This document shows positions 1,518-45,992 of a DNA stretch of 64,000 nucleotides, one piece after another. Position numbers and translations under genes: made by a program. The notes under the pieces are model-generated. The model was not told the DNA's origin and made no database searches. It worked only from the letters and a program-made list of their open reading frames with translations. Source of the DNA: Candidatus Parcubacteria bacterium (lineage in GTDB: Bacteria > Patescibacteriota > Minisyncoccia > Phycocordibacterales > CAIZLB01); contig JBDKLC010000005.1 in NCBI GenBank assembly GCA_039795775.1, forward strand, positions 3,654 through 67,653. Direction: 5' to 3'. Each line of letters begins with the position of its first letter. Position 1 is the first letter of the stretch.

Positions 1518-4500
1518 TGAACCTGTTCTACACACAATGGAATAAACAAGTAGCCACTGCGACAAAAAAAATAGTTGCAGGACTTTTTGTATTTGCACAG
1601 ATCATTTCTCCGTTTGCTTTTTTGGTTCCTCAGGTTGCTGAAGCGGCAGTAAACCGACAAATGAACTATCAGGGTAAGCTCATGACAGCATCAAACGTTG
1701 CTGTACCAGATGGAACATACAACATGGAATTTAAGTTGTACGCTACTGCGGGAACAACAACACCACTTTGGACAGAAACACGAACAAGTGGAGACAAGGT
1801 GACAGTCACAAACGGACTTTTCTCAGTAATGCTTGGAGAAGTGACAGCCCTCACCGGAGTAGATTTTAATCAGACATTGTACTTGGGTGTAAACATCGGA
1901 GGTACAAGTTCACCATCTTGGGATGGAGAAATGTCTCCACGAAAAAAACTTGGTTCAGTTCCTTCTGCACTCGTTGCAGAAACTTTGGATGGAAAATACG
2001 CTGGACAGTTTTTGCGAAGTGATGCGGTAAATGCTACAAACACTTCTTCAACATTTCTTTCATTAACACAAAATGGTACAGGAGATATTGCACAGTTTAT
2101 CGGAACAAGTTCAGTATCAGCTCTTATCATAAAATCAAACGGAAATGTTGGAATTGGAACAACAACACCAGCCGGAGCATTTCAAGTTCATCGAACAAGT
2201 GGATCTTCAGATATTTACGTTACAACTGATGTAAACGTTGGCTCTGCAAATACTGCGTCACTTCAGTTCATCAGTGACAACGACGGAACTCCAAATCCTG
2301 CAGGCCTTGGACAATTCAACGACGGCAGTCTTCGACTCAGTGGTGCAGGCAACTTGGTGACACCAGATATGGTGATTACTGATGCTGGATTTATTGGTAT
2401 TGGCACTACAACTCCTGGATACAGACTTACAGTTGCTGGTATTTTAAATCCAACAACAATTTACGCATCAAGTGGAAGTGCTGCAGCTCCATCAATTGCC
2501 TTCGAAGCTGATGCTGCTCACAACACTGGTTTGTACTACGCTGGAGGAGGTTCATTCTCAGCTGTAGCAGTTGGTACTCGAGTATTCTCAGTTCAAACAA
2601 ATGGTTTGTATTTTAATACTGGATCTGTGTACAACAGTACAGGTACAGCAGCGTTTCCATCTGTAACAGAAAAAAACTTAGGAACAACAGGTCTTTTCTG
2701 GCCAACATCTGGAATGCTTGGTATTAGTACTGGAGGAGTAGAAAGACTTCGAGTAGATGGAAATGGAAATCTTGGTATTGGAACGTCTTCACCAGTCGCG
2801 TCTCTCGCCCTCACCGGAACAGCTGGATTTTCTCCACTTCTCATTGCTTCATCTACAAACGCACGATTGTTTGAAATCAACCAATCAGGCGCAATGCTCG
2901 TAGGTAACTCTGCCGGAACAGCTGGGTTTGTATTGCAATCAAATGGAGCAACAGGAGTTCCAATCTGGGTTGCAACTTCTTCACTTGGAATTTCAGGTGG
3001 TTCTGGAAACTCTGCATTTACAATCGGTAACGGATTTATATTTAATGCTACTTCTACTGACAACGTTGGTATTGGTACTACTACACCGATAGCAACACTT
3101 TCTGTAAAAGGAAGTGGTTCTTCAAATCCGTTTGTTATTTCGTCATCTTCTAACGCACAACTTGTAGTAGTTACAACTGCGGGCAACTTTGGTATTGGTT
3201 CATCAAGTCCACAATCAAAACTTTCAATATTGGGTGATTCAACTTCGGTTGGAAGTGCTTCAACTACAATCGCTGCGTACGGAGGAGCTGGTGGTTCAGG
3301 TAATGGAGTTGGAGGTGGATTTATATTCCAGGGTGGACAAGGTGGTACTGGTGGAGTTGGAGGTTCATTCATTGCTGTTGGAGGTTTTGGAGGAGCTTCA
3401 GGTGGTGGTGGTGGTGCAATCAGTCTTACTGGAGGAACAGCTGGAACAAGTGGAGTTGGAGGTTCTGTAACAATTGCCGGAGGAACAACGGGTGGTAGTG
3501 GTACTGGAGGATCAGTATATATATATGGATCAACTGCCCCAGGTGGATCAACTGGCGCAACAGTACTTGGTATGACAGCTGCATCAGTACAGTCAGGCAA
3601 CGTAGGTGTTGGTTCGTCATCACCAATTGCTAAATTCTCTATTATGGGTGTTGGAGGCACAACACCTCTCGCTATCGCTTCATCAACAGGAGCGAATCTT
3701 CTCAGTATTGACCAAGCTGGTCGACTCCTTGTAGGAACTACATCATCACAGTCAGGTATCCTTCATCTCGCTGCTCAATTGGGTAACAACACAATGCTTA
3801 CTCTCGAAAGTCCTACAGCAAACGAAGCATCAATGTATTTCAAGAATACAGCGTCTTCATGGTCTGTTGGTAACAACAGTGCTGGTGCATATGTTATCGC
3901 CAACTATCCAGGCAGTGTAGGTACAGGACAGATGGTAACAATCTTGCCATCATCAGGTAACTTTGGTATTGGCTCTACAACACCTGGAGCAAAATTAGTA
4001 GTTGCTGGACAAACAATTGGTGAATACTTTACAGCAACAAGTACTACAGTTGCATCTCGATTTACGCTTGCATCTACAACAGCTGTTACTGTCACAACTG
4101 ATTATTATTTAAGTAGTGGATATATTCATGATTCAGGATCTGGAGGAGTTACATTTAATTATGCTGGTGTACAAGTTGGACGATTTGGTCAAACAGGTAA
4201 CGGCATAGGTTTAGAAGGTACAAACAATAACGCATCAGGAAAAGCACTTGTAGCTATTCAATCAAACGCTGCAGGATTTGCCCTTCACTCAACAGGAGGT
4301 ATCAACTATATAGAAAAGAATCTCGGTCTTGGTACAACAACACCACGATCTACATTGTCTGTTTTTGGAGATGCACTTCTTGAAGGAGCAAGCAGATATC
4401 TTAACTTTGGCACATCTTCAGCTACAGGTACATCAGGATACGGATTTAGAGACAACGCTGGAACAATGGAATTTAAAAATTTAGGAGGGTCATGGGCTGC

Positions 4501-7500
4501 TGTTGGTTCGGGTGGTGGAGGATCGGGAAATGCTGCATTTACAATTGGTAACGGCTTTATCTATAACGCTACATCTACAGATAGTGTAGGTATTGGAACA
4601 TCGACACCTTTAGCTAAGCTAAATATATTGAGCACAACAGAGCAATTGAGACTCTCTTATAGTAGTGCTGTCAGCTCTAAGTTTACTGTTAATTCAACTG
4701 GTGGGCTTGATATTGTCCCTTCAGCAAATAGTGATGCTGCATTTACAGTCTCTAACGCTGCTGGAGCTGATCAGTTTAAAGTTGATACCTCAAATGGATC
4801 GGTTTATTTACCAAATTATAACATTCAGTTAGGGGATTCTAGCTTAGGAATGGCTCTTACTGTAGGACAATCTTCTTTAACAGCTAGTGATTCAGGCATT
4901 GGCTATAGCGCATGGAGTATTAACAGAGGATCTTCTGGAGGTGTGATATTTGGTGATAGTACTTACGAAGGATCTGACCTCAGTGTTAATGGATTAAGTT
5001 TTCCAAATACTTTGAAAGTTAAGGGAAGTAGTGGAAGTGTTGGTATTGGTACTTCAAGTCCAATGGCCAAGTTTTCAGTATATGGTAACGCTCTTCTTGA
5101 AGGAACTTCACGATACTTAAACTTTGGCACCGCAACAAGTTCAGCAGGCTACGGATTCAGAGACAACGCTGGAACAATTGAATTTAAGAATTTAGCTGGT
5201 TCATGGGCTGCGGTGAGTTCTGGTGGTGGAGGTGGTGGATCTGGAAATGCTGCATTTACAATCGGAAACGGCTTTATTTACAATGCAACATCAACAGACA
5301 AAGTAGGTATAGGCACAACTACTCCTGGAAGTAGACTTACTGTTGTAGGAACAACAACAACAGATTTCTTGGTAGTAGGATCAAGTACAGCATCAAGCTT
5401 TGCAAATATGCTTGCGTATTTTGCAGGTAACTCAAACAACTATGTTCAAGTAAATGCACAAAACAAGTCATCAGGAAACAATGCCTCAACAGACTTCGTA
5501 GCAACAGCTGACAACGGTGATGATACTCAGTATTACGTAGACCTCGGTATTAACAGTTCTGGATATTCAGATCCGTCATATACAATCGTAGGCGCAAATG
5601 ATGCGTACTTGTATTCACAATCAAGTGCGCTCGTTATTGGTACAGCGAGTACAACAAATCCAAATGCTGTTATTAAATTCCATACAGGGGGAACACTCGC
5701 AGCCGATGAAGCTATGCGAATTGATACTAACGGAAATGTCGGTATTGGTACAACAGCACCAGTTGAGAGATTGCAGGTTGCTGGAAACGTACTTGTAGGT
5801 GCTCGATCAAGTACAGCAAGAACATGGTCTCGAATTTCAAGTTCAACAGCCGGAACAATTGCAGAAGATGCCGGTTCATCAGGATCTATTGCATCTACAA
5901 CAGCTATGGCAGTGTATAATGGATCGCTCTACATTGGTACTGGAAAAGTTGGAGCTGCAGAAGTGTATCGATATGACGGTGGTTCAAACTGGACTCGAGT
6001 ATCAAGTAGTACACCGGGAACAATTGCAGAAGATGCTGGTTCAACTGGTTCTATTGATGCCGTACGATCTATGGCTGTATACAATGGATACCTTTTCGTA
6101 GGAACAAGTAAGCTTAACTCAGCCGAAATTTATCGATACGACGGTAATAGTACATGGACACGAGTATCAAGTAGTACACCGGGGTTTATTGGTGGCTTTG
6201 GTCTTGCTGCTACAACGACTACAGCTGTTACATCTCTCGTTGTAAACAATGGGTCATTGTACGCTGGTACTGCGACAACAGGTAAGGCTGGTATCTTCCG
6301 ATATGATATTGGTCCTTCAGCACTAGCTACTGGAGGAAATACATGGCAAGCTCTTACAGCTACGGCCGGTACTATCGGTGCGGATGCATCTGTCGATGAA
6401 GTTAGTGTGCTCGTGTCATGGAACAACGTACTCTATGCCGGTACAAAGAAGGCAAACGCTGCCGCATTGTATCGATATGACGGTGCATCTACATTCACTC
6501 GAACAAACACTGCTGCAGGTACATTCACAGGTACTGGTCTTGCTTCTATTGACGCCGTCGATGCTGCTGCGGTGTTTGATGGAAAATTGTATCTCGCTAT
6601 TTCGGATCCAAACGCTGCCCGAGTCGTTCGATTTGATACCAACCAAAACGGAGGTGTGGTGACTACATGGGCTACAACATCAAGTTCTACTTCAGGTGTT
6701 ATTGCTGAAGACGTAGGTGCTACTACAGGTATAGACCGAGTAAACTCATTTGCAATTTACAAAAATGACTTGTACGCCGGTACATATGAATCTAACGGTG
6801 CCGAACTTTACAAATTCGACGGTGGAACAACATGGTCAAAATTCTCTAGTACAACAGCAGGAACAATGGGTACGGGTACAACTGCAGCCATCGACGGTAT
6901 TGGTGCAATGCAGACATATAACGATAACTTGATCATTGCTACTACAGAACCAGGAGGAGCTGAAGTGTATACATTTAACTCAGTAGAAGGTGAATCATAT
7001 GCGTTGAAATTCAATGCGGCTTCTAATAATGCTGATGCGGAACAAAACGGTAACCTCAACACCGCATCTATTATCTTCATGGCTGAAGAACAGGCGTTCA
7101 ACAACGTCGGCAACACAAACACTGGTAAATTCTATTTCTCACACGGTATCAACACAGTGACAGGTGCGTACGACGTTGCGGAAGATTACTCAACACGAGA
7201 TGACCTCCTTGCTCCTGGAGATCTTGTAAGTATTGATACAACTGAACAGACAATGGTGAAGCGATCAGCGGGTAAGAATGATAAAAATATCATTGGTATC
7301 TATTCTGTAGAACCAGCCCTTCGACTTTCTCAGCAAGGTGCACTTATCAATGGTGCTAAGGCGGTGCCAATCGCGCTTGCCGGACGAGTGCCTGTGAAAG
7401 TATCTCTTGAAAATGGTCCAATCAAGATTGGAGATTATCTCGCAGCGGGTTCAGCTCCAGGGTCTGCTATGAAGGCTACACGACCAGGAAAAGTTATCGG

Positions 7501-8422
7501 TCGAGCACTCTCAGCATATAGTGGAGCTGAAGGAGAAGAAGCAAAAGTAATTACATTCATCGGTGTTGAAACAATTACTTGGAATGATATTTCTGAAGCT
7601 CAGGATACTGTCTCAGAGCTTGCTCAAGACGGTGAAGACCCACAGACACGAGACAGTGCACTCGAATTCCTTACATCAGTTGATGATGCTGTAGCTGACG
7701 TAGCTCTTGCCGTTATCAACAAAGTAGACAATCTCACACTTGTTGTAGCAAACAAGATTGTGGCTCTTACTGCAAGTATTCGAGACCTCTTTGTAACAAC
7801 ACTCGCGATTAACCCAGGAGGAAAGATTGTTCTTCCTACAGGAGAAAATCAAATTGCTGGAGTAGGAACAATTATCGCTGGTCAGACAGAAGTATTCGTT
7901 CCAAATACACAGATTACAAAGGATTCAGTTGTTTCTGTAACACCTACAACTGAAGTTGAAGTTCCTCTCTTTGTTTCAAAGAAAGAACCTGGAGTTGGAT
8001 TTACAATCCGAATGGTGCGACCAACAACAACAAACGTAGAGTTTGACTGGTTCTTCGTGAACACATACAAGGCAAACGGAAACATTACCACAACTATAGT
8101 TTCTGGTTCTACAAACACGTCTACTCCAACAAGTACAACACAGCAAACAACGATAACAATTGATGGTTCATCAGTTCCATCAAATCCAGCAGGTGAATCA
8201 ACAGATTCGACTTCTACTTCTGATACAACAGAGGAGGGGATAACCGCTACAACTTCAGAAAATACAGTAACATCTTCACCTGGATCTACGGTCACATCAG
8301 AAACTCCACCACCTTCGGTATCAGATGAACCACCGGTTGATACGAATTCTTCGAACGTAGAATCAGCACCCACACCAGCACCAGCTGATGCACCCACAGA
8401 TAGTGGAAGTACTACAGAATAA
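1517..8422 (+). CDS. Giant (2301 aa) repeat-rich cell-surface protein. It has an N-terminal signal/TM anchor, about 12 tail-fibre-like repeats, a Gly-rich solenoid segment, a 7-repeat putative beta-propeller and an S/T/P-rich C-terminal tail.
   Basis: Uninterrupted 6.9-kb ORF starting with ATG. The N-terminal hydrophobic stretch is IVAGLFVFAQIISPFAFLVPQVAEA. The motif [GD]N[VFL]GIG[TS][TS][TS]P-x-[AS][KR]L-x-[VI]-x-G recurs about 12 times. A Gly-rich block (GGAGGSGNGVGGGFIFQGGQGGTGGVGG...) lies at ~3240-3540. Seven ~55-aa repeats ending ...LY.GT....AE.YRYDG...W lie at ~5800-6960. The C-terminal ~110 aa are Ser/Thr/Pro/Glu-rich. Confidence 0.85.
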   Translation: MNLFYTQWNKQVATATKKIVAGLFVFAQIISPFAFLVPQVAEAAVNRQMNYQGKLMTASNVAVPDGTYNMEFKLYATAGTTTPLWTETRTSGDKVTVTNGLFSVMLGEVTALTGVDFNQTLYLGVNIGGTSSPSWDGEMSPRKKLGSVPSALVAETLDGKYAGQFLRSDAVNATNTSSTFLSLTQNGTGDIAQFIGTSSVSALIIKSNGNVGIGTTTPAGAFQVHRTSGSSDIYVTTDVNVGSANTASLQFISDNDGTPNPAGLGQFNDGSLRLSGAGNLVTPDMVITDAGFIGIGTTTPGYRLTVAGILNPTTIYASSGSAAAPSIAFEADAAHNTGLYYAGGGSFSAVAVGTRVFSVQTNGLYFNTGSVYNSTGTAAFPSVTEKNLGTTGLFWPTSGMLGISTGGVERLRVDGNGNLGIGTSSPVASLALTGTAGFSPLLIASSTNARLFEINQSGAMLVGNSAGTAGFVLQSNGATGVPIWVATSSLGISGGSGNSAFTIGNGFIFNATSTDNVGIGTTTPIATLSVKGSGSSNPFVISSSSNAQLVVVTTAGNFGIGSSSPQSKLSILGDSTSVGSASTTIAAYGGAGGSGNGVGGGFIFQGGQGGTGGVGGSFIAVGGFGGASGGGGGAISLTGGTAGTSGVGGSVTIAGGTTGGSGTGGSVYIYGSTAPGGSTGATVLGMTAASVQSGNVGVGSSSPIAKFSIMGVGGTTPLAIASSTGANLLSIDQAGRLLVGTTSSQSGILHLAAQLGNNTMLTLESPTANEASMYFKNTASSWSVGNNSAGAYVIANYPGSVGTGQMVTILPSSGNFGIGSTTPGAKLVVAGQTIGEYFTATSTTVASRFTLASTTAVTVTTDYYLSSGYIHDSGSGGVTFNYAGVQVGRFGQTGNGIGLEGTNNNASGKALVAIQSNAAGFALHSTGGINYIEKNLGLGTTTPRSTLSVFGDALLEGASRYLNFGTSSATGTSGYGFRDNAGTMEFKNLGGSWAAVGSGGGGSGNAAFTIGNGFIYNATSTDSVGIGTSTPLAKLNILSTTEQLRLSYSSAVSSKFTVNSTGGLDIVPSANSDAAFTVSNAAGADQFKVDTSNGSVYLPNYNIQLGDSSLGMALTVGQSSLTASDSGIGYSAWSINRGSSGGVIFGDSTYEGSDLSVNGLSFPNTLKVKGSSGSVGIGTSSPMAKFSVYGNALLEGTSRYLNFGTATSSAGYGFRDNAGTIEFKNLAGSWAAVSSGGGGGGSGNAAFTIGNGFIYNATSTDKVGIGTTTPGSRLTVVGTTTTDFLVVGSSTASSFANMLAYFAGNSNNYVQVNAQNKSSGNNASTDFVATADNGDDTQYYVDLGINSSGYSDPSYTIVGANDAYLYSQSSALVIGTASTTNPNAVIKFHTGGTLAADEAMRIDTNGNVGIGTTAPVERLQVAGNVLVGARSSTARTWSRISSSTAGTIAEDAGSSGSIASTTAMAVYNGSLYIGTGKVGAAEVYRYDGGSNWTRVSSSTPGTIAEDAGSTGSIDAVRSMAVYNGYLFVGTSKLNSAEIYRYDGNSTWTRVSSSTPGFIGGFGLAATTTTAVTSLVVNNGSLYAGTATTGKAGIFRYDIGPSALATGGNTWQALTATAGTIGADASVDEVSVLVSWNNVLYAGTKKANAAALYRYDGASTFTRTNTAAGTFTGTGLASIDAVDAAAVFDGKLYLAISDPNAARVVRFDTNQNGGVVTTWATTSSSTSGVIAEDVGATTGIDRVNSFAIYKNDLYAGTYESNGAELYKFDGGTTWSKFSSTTAGTMGTGTTAAIDGIGAMQTYNDNLIIATTEPGGAEVYTFNSVEGESYALKFNAASNNADAEQNGNLNTASIIFMAEEQAFNNVGNTNTGKFYFSHGINTVTGAYDVAEDYSTRDDLLAPGDLVSIDTTEQTMVKRSAGKNDKNIIGIYSVEPALRLSQQGALINGAKAVPIALAGRVPVKVSLENGPIKIGDYLAAGSAPGSAMKATRPGKVIGRALSAYSGAEGEEAKVITFIGVETITWNDISEAQDTVSELAQDGEDPQTRDSALEFLTSVDDAVADVALAVINKVDNLTLVVANKIVALTASIRDLFVTTLAINPGGKIVLPTGENQIAGVGTIIAGQTEVFVPNTQITKDSVVSVTPTTEVEVPLFVSKKEPGVGFTIRMVRPTTTNVEFDWFFVNTYKANGNITTTIVSGSTNTSTPTSTTQQTTITIDGSSVPSNPAGESTDSTSTSDTTEEGITATTSENTVTSSPGSTVTSETPPPSVSDEPPVDTNSSNVESAPTPAPADAPTDSGSTTE

Positions 8423-8929: not shown

Positions 8930-9004
8930 GCGAGTATAGCTCAGTTGGTAGAGCACATCACTGATACTGATGGGGTCGTAGGTTCGAATCCTACTACTCG
9001 CACC
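8930..9004 (+). tRNA. tRNA-Ile (anticodon GAT)
   Basis: Hand-folded cloverleaf: acceptor GCGAGTA/TACTCGC, D-arm GCTC-AGTTGGTA-GAGC, anticodon stem CATCA/TGATG with loop CTGATAC (anticodon GAT), T-arm GTAGG-TTCGAAT-CCTAC, discriminator A plus CC. The terminal A of CCA is not encoded. Confidence 0.85.
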
Positions 9005-9009
9005 GTAGA

Positions 9010-9048
9010 AAAAGCCCACTTTTGTCCGACAAAAGTGGGCTTTTTATA
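9010..9048 (+). terminator. Rho-independent terminator downstream of tRNA-Ile
   Basis: Perfect hairpin AAAAGCCCACTTTT-(GTCCGAC)-AAAAGTGGGCTTTT followed by TTTTTATAT. Confidence 0.7.
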
Positions 9049-26834: not shown

Positions 26835-28538
26835 TTATTTTGATTTTATTTTTGTTGAAGTTGCAGATGTCGATGAGGCTCTTGTATCAATGTACTGATC
26901 AGATGTGATTTTTGAGTAGAGCACAAATGGTGATCCTTTTTTCAACAATAACTTTGTACCTTTATATTCTACGAGATTGTAGTTTGCTTTGCACCAGTCT
27001 TCGAGATTTTGTGATGCCCAACTACAGAAATGATTGTTGAACGCAAGATACACAATTACATCAGGTGATTTTTCTTTGAATGTATAGTTGAGGTCGTATT
27101 TGTTATGACCAGGAATACTATACATACCTCGTGGATTTGAAAGCGCTCCAGAAAGGTCAGGGGCAAGCTTTGCGATATGAGGATCCATTTTTCCCAAAGG
27201 GTCGAGAGAATATCGCTGCGAAATATAAGGAACAGTTCCAGCCCAGAATGTAGCTACAGATGCTTTGTCGGTGGTGAGCTCTTTGATAACAAGAGCAGAG
27301 TTTATATTTTCTTTATTGTTTCTTGATTGATATGGTTCGAGTCGTGTGAAGTCGTAGTGATAATCGAATGGAACAAATACGAGAAGAGAACACACAATAG
27401 CACTCATGAAAGCCATGAAGTGATCTGTGCGCATGTTGAATGAATCTTTGAGTCTCGCTGCTGTGACAACGAATGCAATAAAGAAAAGCACAGTATAGGG
27501 AACAGTCATTCGCCAAAATGGTGGCCATGGATCTCCACCAACCCATACTTGGTAGGCACTATAGGCTGCAAAAGATCCAACGAAGAGAGTTATATATGAA
27601 AGTGGACCTCGAAGCAGATTACTTATTTTTTCCTTGAGAGATGAACCAGCTTCGAAAAGATATACAAAGAAGAAGAGAATAATAGGAAGAATGAAGAGTT
27701 GAATTCGATTAAGGAAGGGCTGATAGAATCCAAGGCCATTTTTTACACGGTCGAGAAGTGGCATACCTGTCGCTTTGAGGAGGTATGTGTTTGGAACAGA
27801 GAGACCATAGTAAGAAAGTCGGAACATTTGGTAGCCGATAATAGGGAGTGCAGTAATTGTTGCTTCAATACCAACCATAAGCCAGCCTCTTTTTTCTGAA
27901 AGTTTTTGAAAGAACCGGATGATGTAGAAGAGGGCAATGAAGATTGCTCCTTCAGGACGTGCGAGATACACGAGAGAAAGAAGAACTGAAATCCAAACGT
28001 TTGGTCGCCCTGCTGTGTCCTTATAAAGAGAAAGGTAGATAACACTAAGAATGAGAGTTGTGAGATAGCCTGTTTCCATTCCAAAGACTGACCAATACAT
28101 CACTGGATACCATGCCATTGTGAGAATGACACCGAGAAATACGAGAAAATCATTTCGACGTTCTGCAAGAAGTTTTTCGAGTACTCTTCGAACGAGAAAT
28201 ATATTTGCGATGAGACAAAGAAGTCCCATGATTTGTATTGCGAGTGATGCGTAGTTTTGTCCAAAGAGTTTGATTGCTCCAGCCATCACAAACACCGTGA
28301 GAGGATTTGTGAAGCCTTCAACTTTTTCTCCAATATTCCACACGAGACCATGTCCGTGTGCAAGATTGTCTGCATATCTCATCGAAATCATTGCGTCATC
28401 GAAAAGTACAAAGTGTCGCACGCCGTCGAGTGCAACAAATGATGATCGGTAGATGAGAGTGACTGCAAACAAAACAAAAAGTGTAAAACAGATTTTGAAA
28501 ATTCTGTTATGGGCTGGAGCTGAAAAAAAGTTAAACAT
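26835..28538 (-). CDS. GT-C fold membrane glycosyltransferase (ArnT/PMT-like)
   Basis: 567 aa with more than 10 predicted TM helices. The first periplasmic-loop motif FDDAMISMRYADNLAHGHGLVW...EK...NPL resembles the D-[DE]-x-RYA motif of ArnT (GT83) and PMT (GT39) enzymes. It is adjacent to the ArnE-like and UbiA-family genes. Confidence 0.5.
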   Translation of the reverse strand: MFNFFSAPAHNRIFKICFTLFVLFAVTLIYRSSFVALDGVRHFVLFDDAMISMRYADNLAHGHGLVWNIGEKVEGFTNPLTVFVMAGAIKLFGQNYASLAIQIMGLLCLIANIFLVRRVLEKLLAERRNDFLVFLGVILTMAWYPVMYWSVFGMETGYLTTLILSVIYLSLYKDTAGRPNVWISVLLSLVYLARPEGAIFIALFYIIRFFQKLSEKRGWLMVGIEATITALPIIGYQMFRLSYYGLSVPNTYLLKATGMPLLDRVKNGLGFYQPFLNRIQLFILPIILFFFVYLFEAGSSLKEKISNLLRGPLSYITLFVGSFAAYSAYQVWVGGDPWPPFWRMTVPYTVLFFIAFVVTAARLKDSFNMRTDHFMAFMSAIVCSLLVFVPFDYHYDFTRLEPYQSRNNKENINSALVIKELTTDKASVATFWAGTVPYISQRYSLDPLGKMDPHIAKLAPDLSGALSNPRGMYSIPGHNKYDLNYTFKEKSPDVIVYLAFNNHFCSWASQNLEDWCKANYNLVEYKGTKLLLKKGSPFVLYSKITSDQYIDTRASSTSATSTKIKSK

Positions 28539-28547
28539 ACGGGAGGG

Positions 28548-29582
28548 TTAGAAGAATAATTTGGCCACCTTGAGGATACCTTGTTTCCAAGGTACTCGGT
28601 GAGTTACGCCTGACTGACCTTCAAATTTATGAAGATTGGCGAGGTACCAGTCATAGTTTTTTACAAGAGCTTGTTTGTTTGAGAACTGAGGTTTGTAGCC
28701 AAGTTGTAGTTCTGCTTTTTCGATAGATACAAATGAGTCTTTTGACGCTGTTTCGTACACCCACTTGTAAAGAGGGGAAAGTTTGAGAGCTTCGAGAACT
28801 CGGAGTGTCCAAATAACAGGAGCAGCAGGAAGGCCAATAATCTTTTTTCCAAAGCCTGCTTTGTCGAGCACTGCCTGATAATCTTCTTTCATTGTAGTGA
28901 ATTCTTTTGCACCAATATTGAATGTGTCGTTTGCTTTTTCTTTTTCGAGAGTAGAAGCAAGATAAATAGCATCACAGAGATCATCTACGTCGAGGAGCTG
29001 GTAGCGGTTGTGTCCACTTCCGATCATTGGGAAATTTTTTCCATCTTTTGCCCAATCATAAAAGAGAGCGAATACACCAAGTCGTTCTGGACCAACAAAT
29101 GATTTTGGTCGAATGATAGGAACAATGAGACCTTTATTTCGATATTCGAGACAAGCTTCTTCAGCAAGAATCTTTGCTTTACCGTAAGGACCTACACCAT
29201 CGAGTTTGTCATCTTCTTTGAGAGGATGATGATCTGGAATACCGTACACCGCTGTTGAAGAAATATGTACCACTCGAGGCACATTGTTTGCGAGAGCTTT
29301 TTCTAAAATATTTTTTGTACCGTCTACATCAGTCGTCATGATTTCTTGTTCAGTATAGAGGGGAAGTGCTGCAGCTGTATGAACGACAACATCTACACCT
29401 TTCATGTAGGCATCTATAGTTGCTGCATCTCGAATATCGCCTATCACCGCAGTAATTTTTTCTTTTTCAGGATAGTCGAAAGCTTCTTTGTCGATTGAAA
29501 TAATAGTGTGACCTTTTGCAAGAGCATGTCGAATAAAGTTGATACCGAGGAACCCTGAACCGCCTGTAATTAAGAATTTCAT
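28548..29582 (-). CDS. NAD-dependent epimerase/dehydratase (extended SDR)
   Basis: The N-terminal Rossmann motif is KFLITGGSGFLGINFIRHAL. YGKAK (YxxxK) forms the catalytic dyad. Length is ~344 aa. Confidence 0.8.
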   Translation of the reverse strand: MKFLITGGSGFLGINFIRHALAKGHTIISIDKEAFDYPEKEKITAVIGDIRDAATIDAYMKGVDVVVHTAAALPLYTEQEIMTTDVDGTKNILEKALANNVPRVVHISSTAVYGIPDHHPLKEDDKLDGVGPYGKAKILAEEACLEYRNKGLIVPIIRPKSFVGPERLGVFALFYDWAKDGKNFPMIGSGHNRYQLLDVDDLCDAIYLASTLEKEKANDTFNIGAKEFTTMKEDYQAVLDKAGFGKKIIGLPAAPVIWTLRVLEALKLSPLYKWVYETASKDSFVSIEKAELQLGYKPQFSNKQALVKNYDWYLANLHKFEGQSGVTHRVPWKQGILKVAKLFF

Positions 29583-29603
29583 AATGATGTAGCTAGTTAC
29601 AAA

Positions 29604-30467
29604 TTAATAAAAAATCATACACATAAATATAATCCATCCCAGAGTGGCAACAAGAACAATCGGATCAGAAACAACAGCACGCTCTGGATATTCACTCTTT
29701 GCAGATGTGAATACGATAAATACGTATCGAAGTACACCCAGGAGGACGAAGAATATAGAATATACCGCGATATAAGAGTTGAGAACAAGTACAGAATAAA
29801 GACTATATGAAATTATAGAAAGTGTAGCTGCAATAATAAGAAGTGCTGTGAGAAATTCTGATGTGTAGACATTGAGTACCGCACGTTTTGATTTTCCATT
29901 GAATTCAGCAATACGTTTTCCGACGATAAGAAAGAGTGAAATGAAAATAGTACAAAGAAGAAGCCAGAGAGAAATATGAACACCAGCTGCTTCACCACCA
30001 ATGAGGATTCGAATCAAGAAAAATCCTGAGATGAGGAGTATGTCGATGGTAGCAATGTGCTTGAGATAAAAAGAGTAGGCGATGTTGAGGAGGAAATACG
30101 CAGCAAGATAGTAGGTGATAGCTGGAACTACGTAATGTGTGAGAGCAATAGTAGTGATAAGAAGTACGGCAAACACTTGTAGAGCACGACGTACAGAGAC
30201 GGCTCCAGATGCAATTGGTCGAAACTTTTTCTTGTCATGGAGTTTGTCTTGCTCACGATCTGCGATGTCATTGAGAATATATACGCAGCTTGCAGTAAGT
30301 GAAAAACAAATGAATGCGACAATAACGGATTCTAGTTTTTGAATAAAAAGAAATTCTCTTGCGAAAAAGAGGGGAACAAAGATGAAGAAATTCTTTATCC
30401 AGCTAGTGGGTCGTAGCAGTCGGAGAACGTTGTTCATAGGGATTTGTGATGGAAATAAGTATAACAA
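29604..30467 (-). CDS. UbiA-family prenyltransferase resembling decaprenyl-phosphate phosphoribosyltransferase (DPPR synthase)
   Basis: LRLLRPTSWIKNFFIFVPLFFA and NDIADREQDKLHDKKKFRPIASGAVS match the N-terminal and first Asp-rich motifs I recall for the DPPR-synthase branch (RPxQWxKN...NDxxDxExDxxHxxKxxRPIAxG). It has 8-9 TM helices. Confidence 0.65.
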   Translation of the reverse strand: MLYLFPSQIPMNNVLRLLRPTSWIKNFFIFVPLFFAREFLFIQKLESVIVAFICFSLTASCVYILNDIADREQDKLHDKKKFRPIASGAVSVRRALQVFAVLLITTIALTHYVVPAITYYLAAYFLLNIAYSFYLKHIATIDILLISGFFLIRILIGGEAAGVHISLWLLLCTIFISLFLIVGKRIAEFNGKSKRAVLNVYTSEFLTALLIIAATLSIISYSLYSVLVLNSYIAVYSIFFVLLGVLRYVFIVFTSAKSEYPERAVVSDPIVLVATLGWIIFMCMIFY

Positions 30468-30696
30468 AAACTAGATTCTTAGCCTCTAGATGATTTGTAG
30501 AATGTATTGTCAAAACAGGCTTTTTATATTATAAGAGTGGCAGTACATCCGCTCTATTTTGGCAAAGAAAGGCTCTCTGTGTTTGAATTTGTAGGTACAA
30601 AAGGGCCTCTGTTTGCCGAAATTGAGCATCTGCTCCTTATCGACATAACGCAACGCAAGTTGCACAACCCATATCGTAAATACTGATCTACTGTCC

Positions 30697-31092
30697 ATGA
30701 TAAATCCTGATAACCTTATATTCCTTATGGCCGGCCCATTCCAAGGTGCCCGCTATGTCGTAACATCTGTCTGCCCGGCCGGTGTTGAAGTCAACACTGG
30801 TGAGCCTGAGCCCGCTGAGGGTGGCATGCAGCCAGAACTGGGGTTTGGCACTGCGGTGCCTGCCGGTGGTCTTGCTGTGACTGTGCCAACCTTGGCAGCT
30901 TCACAACCTCCCGTGAAGACGGAGCCACTGCCTGTCGGGCACTGGCGTGACGCCAAACTCGTTGGTCTCGTTTACGGGATTGGCACGGGCCACACACCGT
31001 TCACCGACTACGAACGCCTCATCGGCGTCTTTGACCGGACGAACGACGCACATCTCGCCCAAATGGCGATTCTCGCAGCAGCCCTGGTGTAA
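30697..31092 (+). other. GC-rich (~60%) ~0.43-kb segment. It carries a 131-aa ORF of unknown function; coding status is uncertain.
   Basis: Composition shifts abruptly at ~30727 (GGCCGGCCC...) and returns to AT-rich after ~31155. ORFs are open on both strands, as expected for high GC. I recognise no protein family or structured-RNA motif. Confidence 0.25.
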
Positions 31093-31120
31093 ACCAAAAA
31101 GCAGCTGCAAACAACTAATA

Positions 31121-31153
31121 ACGGCGGGGGGTCTCGAAGAGACCCCCCGCCGT
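31121..31153 (+). terminator. GC-rich hairpin terminator at the 3' end of the GC-rich segment
   Basis: ACGGCGGGGGGTCTC-GAA-GAGACCCCCCGCCGT (15-bp perfect stem) followed by AACCATTTT. Confidence 0.55.
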
Positions 31154-31216
31154 AACCATTTTATGCGCTTCAATTTATACATTTCAATTTACCGACAAGC
31201 TTCATTTCATTAATGT

Positions 31217-31271
31217 AAGACGTACAAAGTAAAAAGTCGGAATATTTCCGACTTTTTACTTTGTACGTCTT
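31217..31271. repeat. Long perfect inverted repeat (26-nt arms, 3-nt spacer) between convergent genes; likely bidirectional terminator
   Basis: AAGACGTACAAAGTAAAAAGTCGGAA-TAT-TTCCGACTTTTTACTTTGTACGTCTT, read directly from the sequence. Confidence 0.6.
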
Positions 31272-31327
31272 GGTATTACTTATGCAGTAAAACCTAAACA
31301 CCTAAAGTTCCGCATCCTTTTATTTCT

Positions 31328-32215
31328 TTATTTTTTCTCTAAGATTCCGTAAATGAAGTTACACGGAATTTGTAATTTTTTGAGGAAATCTTCAGCGAGT
31401 TTAAAGTCTTTGTTTTCTGAAAGGAATCGTTCAACCGCGAGCATTGGAGATGTTTCGTGTCCGTACAAACTCTGGTCCCATGTATCCTGCATCATGATGA
31501 TGTCACCTGATTGAAGAAGAGGACCGTAGGTAGTGAGCTCTTTGTATGTGTGTTCGTATGAGTGATCGTTATCAAATGAGAAGAGTACTTTTTTGCCAGG
31601 TGTTCGTGATGCAATAAAGGCTTTCACTTCGTCTACACAATCAAGACTACTTTTCCCATAGAGTGACTGAATTTTTTCAGTTGTCTTGTATGCATCATGA
31701 AATTCTTTTGCTGAAACAACATCAGCATCAGTGATATCGATAGTGAGAATTTTTGGCTGACAATATTTTGAAAGAAGTTCGTAAGTGAAAATTGCTGAAC
31801 CTCCTGATGCTGTTCCAAAATCAACAACGATTTCAGGTTTGAATGTTTCGAATACGTGAGGAATGTTTTTTTCTACATCTGTTCGTACTTGAAGGAAGGG
31901 GAGTTTCTTACCGTTTCGTTCGAGAACGGCATCAGACCATCCGATGTGCTTGCCATCTTTTGTAATAAAGCAAAGCGCAGGATATCCAATAATATTTTTT
32001 CCAATAAAAAACTGTTCTTTGTTTTCGATACCCTTTACTTGAGCATTGTGGATTCGTCGTACGTTCGCTTTGAGAGAAGTAAGGAGGGCAAAGTCATTTC
32101 TCTTAAAAAGATACATATATATAGTACGGAAGTCGTTCCGGAATATGTTTCTTATATAGAGGGCAAGGTGATACGCTTTTCTTACAAACGGTATATTCTT
32201 CAGTTTTGTTTTCAC
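31328..32215 (-). CDS. CmcI/cephalosporin-hydroxylase-family class I SAM-dependent O-methyltransferase (sugar O-methyltransferase-like)
   Basis: IVVDFGTASGGSAIF...ILTIDITD...VLFSFDNDHSYEHT resembles the macrocin/rhamnosyl O-MT family (PF04989-like). Confidence 0.55.
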   Translation of the reverse strand: MKTKLKNIPFVRKAYHLALYIRNIFRNDFRTIYMYLFKRNDFALLTSLKANVRRIHNAQVKGIENKEQFFIGKNIIGYPALCFITKDGKHIGWSDAVLERNGKKLPFLQVRTDVEKNIPHVFETFKPEIVVDFGTASGGSAIFTYELLSKYCQPKILTIDITDADVVSAKEFHDAYKTTEKIQSLYGKSSLDCVDEVKAFIASRTPGKKVLFSFDNDHSYEHTYKELTTYGPLLQSGDIIMMQDTWDQSLYGHETSPMLAVERFLSENKDFKLAEDFLKKLQIPCNFIYGILEKK

Positions 32216-32218
32216 GGG

Positions 32219-33514
32219 TTATGAATTAAATATTATTTTCAAGAGTTTACCTCGAGTATCCTTAAATAGGAAGAGGGAGAGGAAGTTACAGAAATATGAG
32301 ATAAATGTTGCCCAAGCAGCACCAGCGATGCCGTACTTGGGAATGAAGATGAAGTTGAGCACAACGTTCATTGCCATAGCTGAGAATGAAGCAATGAATA
32401 CAGCCTTCTGGTTGTTTTCAGCAAGCAAAAAGTTTTGTGTGAGGTAGGCGAGTGATGTTCCGATACCGGCCCAGATATAAATTTGGAGAATAGGTACTGC
32501 CCCTAGAAACTCCACGCCATATAAGAGCATGATAATTTGTTTTCCAAGAAGCGCCACAGGAAGTGCCACTCCAACAGAAATAAGAACCATAAACAGTCCC
32601 AATCGTTTGAGACGAGCATAGTAAATGTATTCTGATGTTTGTCGCGCATTTACGAGAGCGGGGAACAATGAACCAACAACAAGTCCAGGAATAAAGTACC
32701 ATGCTTCTGCGATTCGAGCAGCAGCGTCGTAAATACCAACTGACTTAGTATCAATAAAGTTTTTGATCATTACTTGATCGATTCGACTATAGATCACCGC
32801 AAATGCACTCGAGAAAAGAAGTGGTAAAGAATTGTAGAGAAGACTTTTTGCGATTTTGTAGTTGAATCTCCAATTGAGGACAGAATCGTAGTATTTGTTT
32901 CGATAGAAAATATAGAAGACTGCATATATAACAGGTTCGAGCATGAATATGATTGTCAAGTAGATGACACCTTTGTTCATGAATACCACGACTAGTTTTA
33001 AAATGTTGAGAAGAACAGATACGTACAGATTGATGAGAGAAGGATACTTTGCCAAAACACTCGCTTGAAACTCATAGGCAACAATATTCCAACCATTGAA
33101 AAGAAACGTCAGAGAAAGAATTGAAATCAACAAGAACGAAATGTCTTGGTGTGATGTATGCCATGCACTTCCAACTGCAATACCGATCATAATGATCCCC
33201 GCAACCATTTTTAAAATAATTGATGTACCGAGGTATTCATTCTTTTTGTCTGGATATTGAATGAGCTCTCTATATAAAATCTGATCTAATCCAAGACTTG
33301 TAAATACAGAGAAGATACCAATATAGCTAATAGAGTAACTAAGGAAGCCATAATTTTCTGGTCCAAGGTAACGCACTACATATGTAGTAACAAAGAAGGA
33401 GATAATAAGACTGAAAATACGAGAAAAGAACATCCAGCCTGCGTTTTTGAGGTATTTCTGAAATCCAGGATTATTGAGCCAAAGTAGGACTTTTTGATAA
33501 AAACTATTGTTCAT
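32219..33514 (-). CDS. wzx: Wzx-like oligosaccharide flippase (MOP superfamily polysaccharide biosynthesis protein)
   Basis: 431 aa with ~12 TM helices. The N-terminus ...KNAGWMFFSRIFSLIISFFVTTYVVRYLGPENYG is typical of Wzx/RfbX. Confidence 0.75.
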   Translation of the reverse strand: MNNSFYQKVLLWLNNPGFQKYLKNAGWMFFSRIFSLIISFFVTTYVVRYLGPENYGFLSYSISYIGIFSVFTSLGLDQILYRELIQYPDKKNEYLGTSIILKMVAGIIMIGIAVGSAWHTSHQDISFLLISILSLTFLFNGWNIVAYEFQASVLAKYPSLINLYVSVLLNILKLVVVFMNKGVIYLTIIFMLEPVIYAVFYIFYRNKYYDSVLNWRFNYKIAKSLLYNSLPLLFSSAFAVIYSRIDQVMIKNFIDTKSVGIYDAAARIAEAWYFIPGLVVGSLFPALVNARQTSEYIYYARLKRLGLFMVLISVGVALPVALLGKQIIMLLYGVEFLGAVPILQIYIWAGIGTSLAYLTQNFLLAENNQKAVFIASFSAMAMNVVLNFIFIPKYGIAGAAWATFISYFCNFLSLFLFKDTRGKLLKIIFNS

Positions 33515-37019: not shown

Positions 37020-38057
37020 ATGAATACTTCAATTTCACACATGAAAAAGATATCGATTCTCCTCGTTGCTTTTGTATTTATGTTTGTAGCATTTGCTTTA
37101 CCGAAAAAAGCTGAAGCCTCATTCGAGATCAACATTAAAACTAATGTTGGTACATATAAAGTAACAATTAAACATTGGAACGATTGGGGAGAATGTAATG
37201 AATGTTATGATCGATATCGATCAGGATTCGTTACGACAGCAAAAGCATATGCACAAAAAGGGGCAGGAGTGTATCATTTCACACAAGCTTGTGGTAACCA
37301 CAATGATATTACAGTTCGATTGATTAAGAAGAATCCGCCTAAACCACCTATCATACCTCCGGTAATTCCAGTCACAACATGTTCTGCTGGATCAGGACAG
37401 ATTGTTGTTGGGGGAGTTTGTACGTGTCCTCTTGGACAGAATCTTGTCGGCGGTGTTTGTACAGGAATAGATAGTTGTCCTGCACAAAGTCTCATATATC
37501 CGACAGGATTCGTTGGACCACTTCCTACTGGAGGCGTGTACGAAACAGCTGCTTGTCCAAAATACACATGTAATAGCAACAACATTTGTGAAGCAAAAGA
37601 AAATAATTCAAGTTGTCCTGCTGATTGTAGTGTAACTCCGCCTCCACCTACATCTTGTACAAGTGATCCACTTGTTGGAACAACTTGCTCAACAGGAAGA
37701 TGTGGAGCAGAAGGAGATGGCACAATGATTTGTACACCATCTGGTCTTCAGTGTCAGACAGGTCCAGCTTATAAATGTGTTGGTGCAGCTATTGATACAT
37801 TCAAAGCACTTCCAGGTGATGTAAACAAAGGTCAGTCATGTACATTGTCTTGGGAAGTTGCAGACGCTGTAAGTTGTAAGATCACACGACCAAATGGAAC
37901 AACACTTCTCAGTGCTCCAGCGATTCCAAGAGGATCTTCTCCGTCAGATCCAATTCAAGAAACAACGATATATACACTTACATGTAAGGGAACAAATGAT
38001 GTTCCAGTTTCATCTCAGGTGAAATGTAAGTTGAATGCAGGAGTCACACAGTTCTAA
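37020..38057 (+). CDS. Secreted cysteine-rich protein (hypothetical)
   Basis: Signal peptide MKKISILLVAFVFMFVAFALPKKAEA. About 30 Cys in 345 aa, with patterns GVCTCPLGQNLVGGVCTG and CSAG..C. Contains a PPKPPIIPPVIP linker. Confidence 0.55.
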   Translation: MNTSISHMKKISILLVAFVFMFVAFALPKKAEASFEINIKTNVGTYKVTIKHWNDWGECNECYDRYRSGFVTTAKAYAQKGAGVYHFTQACGNHNDITVRLIKKNPPKPPIIPPVIPVTTCSAGSGQIVVGGVCTCPLGQNLVGGVCTGIDSCPAQSLIYPTGFVGPLPTGGVYETAACPKYTCNSNNICEAKENNSSCPADCSVTPPPPTSCTSDPLVGTTCSTGRCGAEGDGTMICTPSGLQCQTGPAYKCVGAAIDTFKALPGDVNKGQSCTLSWEVADAVSCKITRPNGTTLLSAPAIPRGSSPSDPIQETTIYTLTCKGTNDVPVSSQVKCKLNAGVTQF

Positions 38058-38083
38058 TAAAACTAAAAAAGTTTTCTCAAAAA

Positions 38084-38110
38084 GTTCAGACAATGTCTGA
38101 ACTTTTTTTG
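38084..38110 (+). terminator. Rho-independent terminator after the Cys-rich protein gene
   Basis: GTTCAGAC-AAT-GTCTGAAC followed by TTTTTTTG. Confidence 0.65.
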
Positions 38111-38381
38111 TTATATACATACAAAAACTTTTCATTAAATAAAAATAAAAAAATATAAAGAAAATAAAATATTTTTCTTAAAAAATAATTTTTATACTTA
38201 TCCACAATTATCTTAAAAAAAATATTGCAGTTGTTGTCAGTGTGACGGATAATTAAGAAGTATTTAGAGTGTGCAAGAAAATTTTTTGGAAATTATTTAT
38301 TAATGCTTCAAAAATATTTTCTCGACGTCGGCATTCTAAAAAAAAGTTTAAAAAGTAATTAGCTCTTTGAGCGCACCCAAC

Positions 38382-38483: not shown

Positions 38484-38502
38484 TCGCTTAGTCTCACTTA
38501 AC

Positions 38503-38528
38503 AAAAAACCCTCATTTGAGGGTTTTTT
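38503..38528 (+). terminator. Rho-independent terminator after the K-rich peptide gene
   Basis: AAAAAACCCTCA-TT-TGAGGGTTTTTT. Confidence 0.6.
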
Positions 38529-38574
38529 GTTTGGTTACATTTGGATAAATGGAGGCTAATAGTATAATGAAATT

Positions 38575-39348
38575 ATGGATACACAGAATTTTTCATTATA
38601 CAAAGTTATCGCCTTCGATCTCGATAACACGCTTGCTCCAAGCAAGCTCATTATAGACAAAGAGATGGAGGAGTTGCTTGCAGCACTTCTTGCAAAAACA
38701 AAAGTGGCAGTAATATCAGGAGGTAGCTTTGCACAATTTGAAAAAGAACTCTTAGACCCACTCTCATGTTTTGATCTTTTCAAAAATCTACACATTTTTC
38801 CAACTGATGGTACTGCATACTACACATATGCAAAACACGAATGGACTCCTGTATATCAAGAATCACTGACGCAACAGCAAAAAGAAAAAATTATGAATGC
38901 ATTTCAAGAGGTACTTGGTAAGCTGCCATCTCTCTATGTATCATCACAAATGTTGTACGGAGCTCTTGTTGAAGATCGTGACTCTCAGATTACTTTTTCA
39001 GGGCTTGGGCAGCAGGCACCTCTCGAAATTAAGCGATCTTGGGATCCAGATGGAAAAGTTCGATCTGCGATGAAGCAACTTCTTCAACCTATGCTCCCAG
39101 AATTCAGTATTACTATTGCAGGTACTACATCAATTGATGTCACTCCAAAAGATCACGACAAAGCATATGCTATTTCAAAGATCTGCTCATATCTCAATGT
39201 GACAAAAGAAGAAATATTATTTATTGGGGATGCTCTTTTTCTTGGAGGGAATGATGCGCCTGTTATAAGTACGGGGGTACAGACAATGGCAGTACGAGGA
39301 CCAAACGAAACAAAACTTATTATCAAAAAGATGTTGAGTACACTATAA
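38575..39348 (+). CDS. HAD-IIB (Cof-type) sugar-phosphate phosphatase / phosphomannomutase-like hydrolase
   Basis: VIAFDLDNTLAPS (DxDxT motif I), VAVISGGS (motif II) and FIGDALFLGGNDAPV (motif IV-like). Confidence 0.55.
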   Translation: MDTQNFSLYKVIAFDLDNTLAPSKLIIDKEMEELLAALLAKTKVAVISGGSFAQFEKELLDPLSCFDLFKNLHIFPTDGTAYYTYAKHEWTPVYQESLTQQQKEKIMNAFQEVLGKLPSLYVSSQMLYGALVEDRDSQITFSGLGQQAPLEIKRSWDPDGKVRSAMKQLLQPMLPEFSITIAGTTSIDVTPKDHDKAYAISKICSYLNVTKEEILFIGDALFLGGNDAPVISTGVQTMAVRGPNETKLIIKKMLSTL

Positions 39349-44747: not shown

Positions 44748-44897
44748 GTTGATATAATTGACGAAATTATACGAAAAGGTAGTCTTAGTGCGGGGAATAA
44801 CGTGACTCGGCGAAGTCACACAACAAGCACAAACCTCTCATTTCGTATGGGATTACCAAAAAAGAAAAAAAAGCTAAAACAACCACGTGGGTCTGAA

Positions 44898-45992
44898 ATG
44901 ACCTACAAGGATAGTGGTGTCGACTACGGCGCTCTCGATCCTCTCAAAATCGTTTGCCAAAACTTGGCGGCGCAAACACGAAACAATATCGGCGACACGG
45001 ATGTCTTTGAGTTAGCTTCAACGCGAGGCGAAAGCTACTACGCGTTGGAACTACCTGATCGTTACCTCGTGACTGTCACCGAAGGACTCGGGACACGCAA
45101 TCGCGTGGCCGAGATCGCCGGTGAGCTCACGGGAAATGCTCAGTATTACTTCAACATGGGATACTCAAATGCGGCGACGGCGTTTAATGATCTGACAACC
45201 TCTGGTGGTCGGATCCTGACGTTTTCGCTTCATATCGCGACGGGCAGTGCAGCGTGGATGAAAAATCCGCGCTTCATGGAAGCATTTGCGCAAGGCACAA
45301 AAAAAGCCTGCGACGATGCACGATGCACTTGGGGAGGTGGGGAGACATCCACCCTTCGAGACATCGTTCTTCCGAACACTGCGGTGCTCGGTGGATCTGC
45401 CTTTGGCCAAGTGGTAGACAAGTCTTCACTCGTAGACTCTTCGCGAGTCAGTGCTGGAGACGCTATCATTTTGGTGGCGAGCTCGGGCATTCACGACAAC
45501 GGCATCACGCTCACGCGCGATCTGCCTACTCGTTTGCGTCATGGGTATAATACGAGGGTCAAAGGTGGAGGGCGGTTCTTCGAGGAACTTCTCATTCCTA
45601 CGACCATCTATGCCAAGATGATCTACGCTCTTCGGAAAGGCAATATTCCGCTTCACTACGTCATGAATATCACCGGCCACGGCTGGCGCAAACTCATGCG
45701 GGCTCCTCAGCCCTTTACGTATCGGATCAAAAAGCTACTGCCTGTTCCGCCTATCTTCCCGTTCATTCAACATCACGGGAATATCGCGGCCCCGGAAATG
45801 TGGGGCAATTACAACATGGGCGCAGGGTATGCCGTGGTCGTGCCACACAAAAAGCTCACTGCTGCCTTGTCCATCATCAAAAAGGCAGGATACCAGGCAA
45901 TCCATGCCGGCGACGTCGAAGAAGGCAAAAAACAAGTCCTTCTCGAACCTATCGGGGTTGAATATGAGGCGGGTTCACTCAGCATCCGCTAA
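44898..45992 (+). CDS. PurM-like (AIR-synthase-related) protein encoded in a GC-rich (~57%) segment
   Basis: MTYKDSGVDY, VTVTEGLGTRNRVAEIAG, WGGGETSTL and DAIILVASSGIHDNGITL parallel the PurM motifs YKDAGVDI, VSGTDGVGTKLRLA, GGETAEMPG and DVLIALGSSGPHSNGYSL. The start is taken at the ATG at 44898. GC-rich composition produces spurious overlapping ORFs on both strands. Confidence 0.7.
   Translation: MTYKDSGVDYGALDPLKIVCQNLAAQTRNNIGDTDVFELASTRGESYYALELPDRYLVTVTEGLGTRNRVAEIAGELTGNAQYYFNMGYSNAATAFNDLTTSGGRILTFSLHIATGSAAWMKNPRFMEAFAQGTKKACDDARCTWGGGETSTLRDIVLPNTAVLGGSAFGQVVDKSSLVDSSRVSAGDAIILVASSGIHDNGITLTRDLPTRLRHGYNTRVKGGGRFFEELLIPTTIYAKMIYALRKGNIPLHYVMNITGHGWRKLMRAPQPFTYRIKKLLPVPPIFPFIQHHGNIAAPEMWGNYNMGAGYAVVVPHKKLTAALSIIKKAGYQAIHAGDVEEGKKQVLLEPIGVEYEAGSLSIR

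Follow-up and report, generated by a model that had tools for sequence, protein, structure and literature searches.

A GC-rich island in a Parcubacteria glycan locus that may be a laterally acquired orphan gene cassette

In AT-rich genomes, long GC-rich intergenic stretches are a classic sign of structured RNA, and discovery methods based on GC content and intergenic regions make use of this sign. For orphan genes, a large survey has shown that species-specific orphans normally match the GC content of their genome, and that de novo or phage-like orphans lie below it (PMC11293555). The feature described here is a GC-rich island in the glycan locus of a Candidatus Parcubacteria bacterium, and it resembles both kinds of system in part. 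It lies within a stretch of DNA of 64 kb, the whole of which is referred to here as the window.

The island (30727-31155) comprises a coding core, a 3' untranslated stretch and a GC-rich hairpin. Its GC content is approximately 61%, against a window mean of 41%, making it the top composition outlier in the 64 kb; the segment 30727-31092 alone has 61.2% GC. When GC content is calculated in segments of 150 nt, the peak is at the island and reaches 65%, the highest value in the 64 kb (whole-window mean 40.9%, sd 5.2). Both edges are sharp. On the left, the GC content goes from 27% at 30700-30729 to 57% at 30720-30749, and the edge falls on the first base of the in-frame ATG at 30727. On the right, the island ends where the hairpin ends, at approximately 31155. 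A previous reading of this DNA, made from the sequence only and referred to here as the sequence-only reading, had described an abrupt segment of about 60% GC between ~30727 and ~31155, and the measured values bear it out. Once normalised for GC content, the dinucleotide signature of the island is a mild outlier, 8% of windows of the same size being equally deviant; the island is short.

The genes around the island include an epimerase, UbiA, a CmcI-type methyltransferase, a Wzx-type flippase, a Wzy_C protein and glycosyltransferases, and the setting is thus a glycan locus, as had been claimed. The island is held in a gap of 860 nt between the methyltransferase and UbiA genes. Its left neighbour encodes a UbiA-family prenyltransferase that is decaprenyl-phosphate phosphoribosyltransferase-like (29604-30467, minus strand). 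This is the first gene of a UbiA-epimerase module, and beyond it are the NAD-dependent epimerase (28548-29582, minus strand) and then more glycan genes. The right neighbour is a gene of the CmcI/rhamnosyl O-methyltransferase family (31328-32215, minus strand), beyond which is the Wzx-type flippase (32219-33514, minus strand). The reading frame of the island is antisense to all of its neighbours, being divergent from UbiA and convergent with the methyltransferase gene.

A module consisting of UbiA, the epimerase, a small membrane protein and a PGP_phosphatase-like protein (26835-30467 in the window) is kept across Patescibacteria relatives. It resembles a decaprenyl-phosphoribose-type sugar-carrier pathway.

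The closest protein to the UbiA neighbour in the collections has 61% identity. Five related loci (L003, L004, L083, L084 and L085) were compared with the window; these relatives are distant, their UbiA proteins being 58-61% identical. The UbiA-epimerase module is kept in all five, with a different upstream gene in each, and with a spacer upstream of UbiA of 26-138 nt. The sequence-only reading had considered that a related genome might carry a homologue of the island with the same composition. In the 1.5 kb upstream of UbiA the island is absent from all five relatives, and no 150-nt window there exceeds 49% GC. Since it is absent from the five relatives and the upstream gene differs each time, the island lies at a synteny breakpoint and is specific to this lineage among the genomes compared.

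The ORF as annotated has 131 amino acids (30697-31092, plus strand), and an identical sequence is present at NCBI as MAG hypothetical protein RL094_249 of Candidatus Parcubacteria bacterium. Codons 1-10 belong to the native AT-rich DNA, and codon 11 is the ATG at 30727. It was therefore correctly described as beginning in AT-rich DNA and running on into the GC-rich part. From codon 11 to the TAA stop codon (31090-31092) there is a GC-rich core ORF of 121 amino acids (30727-31092, plus strand). Its product has an N-terminal half rich in Ala, Gly, Pro and Val, followed by approximately 55 residues with a more ordinary mix. The peptide DAKLVGLVYGIGTGHTPFTDYER is part of the ORF product.

The frame is not longer than would be expected by chance. 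In 39% of dinucleotide-preserving shuffles of the island, 122 codons or more can be read without a stop, which matches its 121 open codons; this agrees with the view that open frames on both strands of the island are an artefact of high GC content. The composition of the frame tells a different story. GC content by codon position in the core ORF is 0.73/0.51/0.60 (heterogeneity chi-square p=0.0017), and G makes up 47% of first codon positions in the plus-strand frame. This frame alone among the six has a positive amino-acid log-odds, in which protein-like usage is compared with random translation of the same bases, and in its product Arg, Ser, Cys and Trp are scarce and Ala, Gly, Val and Glu abundant. 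The suggestion that the ORF is an artefact of composition, or may be a fortuitous fusion, is thus correct as far as its length goes, which is not significant, and is contradicted by the periodicity and the protein-like usage of the plus-strand frame.

Coding on the minus strand was considered and rejected. The frames on that strand are split into pieces of 67, 68 and 93 amino acids and have an antisense-like composition. One minus-strand frame is open but for a single TGA, and is rich in Cys, Arg and Trp; Parcubacteria use the standard code. AlphaFold2 was run on the single ORF sequence, without an alignment, and gave an uninformative prediction with a pLDDT of 34. The codon-phase and composition signals, together with the exact layout from ATG to TAA to hairpin, indicate that the plus-strand frame is best read as a gene or a recent former gene. 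Its product may be a neutral passenger.

Downstream of the ORF there are two hairpins. The nearer one is the GC-rich perfect hairpin ACGGCGGGGGGTCTC/GAGACCCCCCGCCGT (31121-31153), which starts 28 nt past the TAA. It has a 15-bp stem containing 12 G-C pairs, with arms that are 100% complementary, a 3-nt GAA loop and a calculated energy of -33.4 kcal/mol. A terminator scan found it to be terminator-like on the minus strand (31153-31121), with the tail TATTAGTTGT; on the plus strand the TTTT run is displaced, and starts 6 nt after the stem. It is presumed to be the terminator of the ORF, and could also halt read-through on the minus strand.

The second is a perfect inverted repeat (31217-31271) with 26-nt arms, a 3-nt spacer and an energy of -38.1 kcal/mol, located 63 nt beyond the GC-rich hairpin and 57 nt downstream of the methyltransferase stop codon. 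Both structures had been noticed in the sequence-only reading, which placed one at the end of the GC-rich segment and the other about 60 bp further on, and both were found, with arms of 15 and 26 nt respectively. The core of the repeat, AAAAAGTCGGAA-TAT-TTCCGACTTTTT, has the form of an A-tract, a stem and a T-tract, with T5 on both strands, and the scan qualifies 31221-31267 as a terminator on the plus strand. The same design is found at 9006-9048, 38079-38107 and 38500-38531. Because it recurs at these three other intergenic sites in the window, the 26-nt-arm repeat looks like a native-type bidirectional terminator of the methyltransferase gene, and not like a boundary of the insert, as had been proposed.

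The palindrome at 9006-9048 directly follows tRNA-Ile(GAU), at 8930-9004. The segment 38000-38600 is an intergenic stretch of ~32% GC between two plus-strand genes, and palindromes occur in this region at 37968-37997, 38079-38107, 38148-38193 and 38500-38531.

The sequence between UbiA and the core ORF (30468-30726) is an AT-rich control region from which UbiA (minus strand) and the ORF (plus strand) diverge; it has -10-like boxes in both directions, all of them consensus matches only. On the plus strand the boxes are TAGAAT (30498-30503), TATATT (30525-30530) and TATATT (30717-30722), the last of which sits 4 nt before the ATG at 30727. The ATG at 30697 is the first to be found downstream of the other two (30498-30503 and 30525-30532). 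On the minus strand, the boxes TATAAT (30533-30528) and TGT-TATACT (30463-30458) point toward UbiA. A scan of the plus strand upstream of the ORF for sigma-70-type promoters with two hexamers found none, and there were no Shine-Dalgarno sites upstream of the approximately 40 gene starts in the window. Of 38 genes, 8 have a -10-like box (TATAAT-like, often after TGn) at a distance of 6-8 nt upstream of the start codon, which suggests that this subset may have leaderless mRNAs. Starts examined include those at 38575, 39356, 39968, 59367, 17608 (minus strand), 33583 and 51390.

A role for the island as a 5' leader of UbiA was considered and found to be unneeded, native -10 boxes being present less than 100 nt from the UbiA start and the spacers of the relatives being 26-138 nt long. 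The AT-rich spacer also contains an ORF of 59 amino acids with a TTG start (30507-30686, plus strand), just upstream of the 131-residue ORF. It has a native-like GC content by codon position (0.52/0.30/0.40), matches no family and is missing from the annotation; it is perhaps a small native gene, perhaps a chance frame.

Relatives of the island, or a donor, were sought widely. The ORF and the alternative frames had no match in Pfam, PHROGs, NCBIfam, PADLOC or the PDB sequences. A word-index search of 5.8 billion proteins found only the ORF itself, and a full phmmer search of 1.84 billion representatives found the ORF itself and one chance match, with no homologue. A 20-residue phmmer match to protein P0002 was rejected as repeat-derived and due to chance. 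Searches of phage and plasmid records with blastn and tblastn found nothing. Metagenome and viral contigs gave no match to peptide patterns, scans for the exact hairpin were negative too, and there is no paralogue of the island within the 64-kb window. The ORF is thus an orphan, with no known relatives in searches of proteins, DNA and RNA families. The outside match that the sequence-only reading had envisaged did not emerge, either as a homologue or as a donor, in the collections searched.

The composition of the ORF differs from that of the native genes. In 41 native ORFs, GC content at the three codon positions is 0.54/0.37/0.32, with sd of about 0.05-0.06. At 0.60, the GC3 of the island ORF is approximately 4.6 sd above the native value of 0.32±0.06. 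Amino-acid bias covers GC1 and GC2 but does not cover a GC3 of 0.60, and a product rich in Ala, Gly, Pro and Val is therefore insufficient as the cause. The non-coding hairpin is also GC-rich, like the ORF. From the relation between GC3 and genomic GC, a GC3 of 0.60 corresponds to a donor with approximately 50-57% GC, or to partial amelioration. In a typical actinobacterium GC3 is usually above 0.85, and the value of 0.60 disfavours a direct donor of this kind. An orphan that is 20 GC points above its genome, when set against the survey of orphan genes (PMC11293555), points to an outside source. On composition and synteny, a foreign origin is the best supported reading of the island. The proposal that it was captured from a high-GC donor, for example an actinobacterium, is therefore sustained as regards foreign origin by GC3 and by the absence of the island from relatives, and is disfavoured as regards the actinobacterium.

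The borders of the island have no integrase, transposase, tRNA anchor or terminal inverted repeat, and no target duplication that is convincing. The only sequence common to both borders is the 5-nt TAACC, which is within chance expectation. An IS200/IS605 element and a MITE were both rejected, the island being without terminal repeats, target duplication, an HUH-type motif or a Pfam match; an integron cassette was rejected because there are no attC core sites.

Elsewhere in the window, a PurM/AIR-synthase-related gene (44802-45992, plus strand, 396 amino acids) has ~52% GC and a GC3 of 0.56, where native genes have 0.32. Identity to its closest homologues does not exceed 47%, and Patescibacteria account for many of those with a named source. 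It was therefore rejected as a clue to the donor, the family being common in Patescibacteria and the gene not being traceable as a recent import; it follows that high GC content in this genome does not always mean recent import. Two further ORFs, at 1517-8422 (plus strand, 2301 amino acids) and 37020-38057 (plus strand, 345 amino acids), have a second-position GC content of 0.55 and 0.52 respectively, against 0.37, with a low GC3. This suggests a biased or repetitive composition, and the proteins are perhaps giant surface proteins.

Several other explanations were considered. The abrupt step in composition is what would be seen if a 430-bp piece of another organism had been spliced into the contig during metagenome assembly, as the sequence-only reading suggested. 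However, contigs from three assemblies, NCBI (509 kb), JGI 3300043397 (187 kb) and Logan SRR35181295 (45 kb), encode the identical protein among the same neighbouring genes, and for JGI and Logan, whose contigs were retrieved, the sequence matches the window at 100% identity across 20.4 kb. An internal insert of this size would need two false joins, repeated by different pipelines; moreover, the junctions have no repeat in common, the left one coincides with an in-frame start codon and the right one with the end of a hairpin. With three assemblies in agreement, a chimera is very improbable. A long GC-rich intergenic stretch in an AT-rich genome would be accounted for by a structured non-coding RNA specific to the lineage, ~400 nt in length and encoded on one strand or the other, the GC content providing helix stability and the frame, not significant by its length, being a by-product. 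Such an RNA would also account for the strong hairpin at the 3' side. With the terminator hairpin left out, the plus strand (30727-31115) folds with a z-score of -2.17, and 1 of 100 shuffles was as good; on the minus strand, where a promoter-like site at 31187-31158 would start an RNA at the hairpin, the z-score is only -1.59, and the single promoter-like site found compares with 2.1 in shuffles. A three-base periodicity and protein-like usage in exactly one frame would not be expected of an RNA gene, and with no homologues in any collection there is no support from covariation. Nor is there an Rfam match inside the island, at the gathering score or with E up to 10. At the gathering score, Rfam 15, in which group I introns and large ornate RNAs are also represented, gave tRNA-Ile as the sole match in the 64 kb, and with E up to 10 the matches in the region 30500-31350 were limited to a 10.6-bit tmRNA fragment and to noise of the miRNA-like hairpin type at both palindromes. 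This agrees with the earlier statement that RNase P, tmRNA, SRP, group II introns and riboswitches could not be matched to the island by eye. Given the weak z-scores and the lack of an Rfam match, the structured RNA that had been put forward as an option is decidedly unlikely.

A different possibility is that the island is captured foreign DNA that has no function, fixed by illegitimate recombination (for example after competence uptake by a nucleotide scavenger) and neither expressed nor selected. The lack of homologues would fit with this, as would the lack of a clear sigma-70-type promoter upstream on the plus strand, an open frame that is unsurprising at this composition, the failure of AlphaFold2 to give a fold, and the orientation of the islet antisense to the whole operon. 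On the other hand, the left edge of the island falls exactly on an ATG, and a stop codon followed by a hairpin closes it on the right, so that it looks like a complete transcription unit and unlike a random fragment. Its GC3 is far from native, which means that it is either recent or maintained, and small streamlined genomes tend to delete useless DNA. We consider dead DNA to be unlikely, if less so than the other alternatives. The island could also be a native gene, with a GC content that results from its Ala/Gly/Pro/Val-rich product and local bias, or a gene that arose de novo or has diverged past recognition. That the genome tolerates such genes is seen from the GC-rich PurM-like gene (GC3 0.56), with relatives largely in Patescibacteria, and the dinucleotide signature of the island is no strong outlier. 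But the difference in GC3 between 0.60 and 0.32 is beyond amino-acid bias, the hairpin is GC-rich although it is non-coding, the island is absent from relatives, and native or de novo orphans are usually at or below genome GC (PMC11293555). A native gene is accordingly judged improbable.

The explanation that we prefer, to which we would give about an even chance of being correct, is that the island is a laterally acquired orphan single-gene cassette with its own terminator. The cassette would consist of the 121-residue frame (131 residues if the upstream ATG is used) and its own GC-rich hairpin terminator, and would have been integrated antisense to the surrounding genes, just upstream of the UbiA-epimerase module in the Parcubacteria glycan locus. 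The AT-rich spacer shared with UbiA would provide the start of transcription, at one of its -10-like boxes, and translation would proceed without a Shine-Dalgarno sequence, like that of every other gene in the window. The transcript would stop at the GC-rich hairpin, with the native bidirectional terminator 63 nt further on as a backup. This second terminator would also end the convergent methyltransferase gene, and together the two hairpins would insulate the UbiA unit from read-through from the flippase and methyltransferase genes. The analysis shows the jump in composition, the coding-type periodicity, the layout from ATG to TAA to hairpin, and that relatives lack the island and homologues are missing; that the cassette is foreign and expressed, and that its product is functional, is what we infer.

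The feature is real, and is of an ordinary kind; its present value is mainly as a curated annotation of something that is real, not chimeric and probably coding. If it was imported, it is a further case of foreign DNA in the variable surface-glycan loci of reduced-genome Patescibacteria, and its composition could narrow the range of partner organisms once the same metagenome is searched for the donor. There is a small chance that it is something more unusual, either a new large structured RNA from an unsampled Parcubacteria lineage, of which this would be the single copy sampled, or a gene from the physical host or partner of the bacterium. In the latter case its GC3 of ~0.6, which suggests about 50-57% GC in the donor, would serve as a molecular clue to the partner.

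It remains to compare the island with known systems. The GC-rich RNAs of AT-rich genomes, such as RNase P RNA, tmRNA, OLE and the GOLLD/ROOL-type RNAs, are similar to it in size, GC excess, intergenic location and the presence of a trailing hairpin. The island differs from them in having no covariance-model match and no homologues, in a fold that barely beats shuffled sequences, and in its codon periodicity. Integron gene cassettes likewise have a short orphan ORF closely followed by a palindromic element, but the hairpin of the island is without R''/R' core sites (there are no RYYYAAC/GTTRRRY flanks), and there is no integrase or cassette array nearby.

The two hairpins may be compared with intrinsic terminators. 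The 26-nt-arm palindrome, like intrinsic bidirectional terminators, has an A-tract, a G+C stem and a T-tract and lies between convergent genes; here its arms are extended by 14 more perfectly paired bases. The GC-rich hairpin of the island differs from intrinsic terminators in that no T-run comes right after the stem on the plus strand, and in this it resembles the tail-less hairpin terminators described in high-GC bacteria.

The remaining comparison is with orphan genes and genomic islets acquired by lateral transfer. Orphans that are phage-like or were acquired laterally are as a rule richer in AT than their genome; the island is 20 points GC-richer, and it comes without mobility genes, a tRNA anchor, flanking repeats or a donor that could be found. 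In other respects it is like them: it is short, has no homologues and is absent from relatives, its GC content and GC3 are unusual, and it is situated at a synteny breakpoint in a variable surface-glycan locus.
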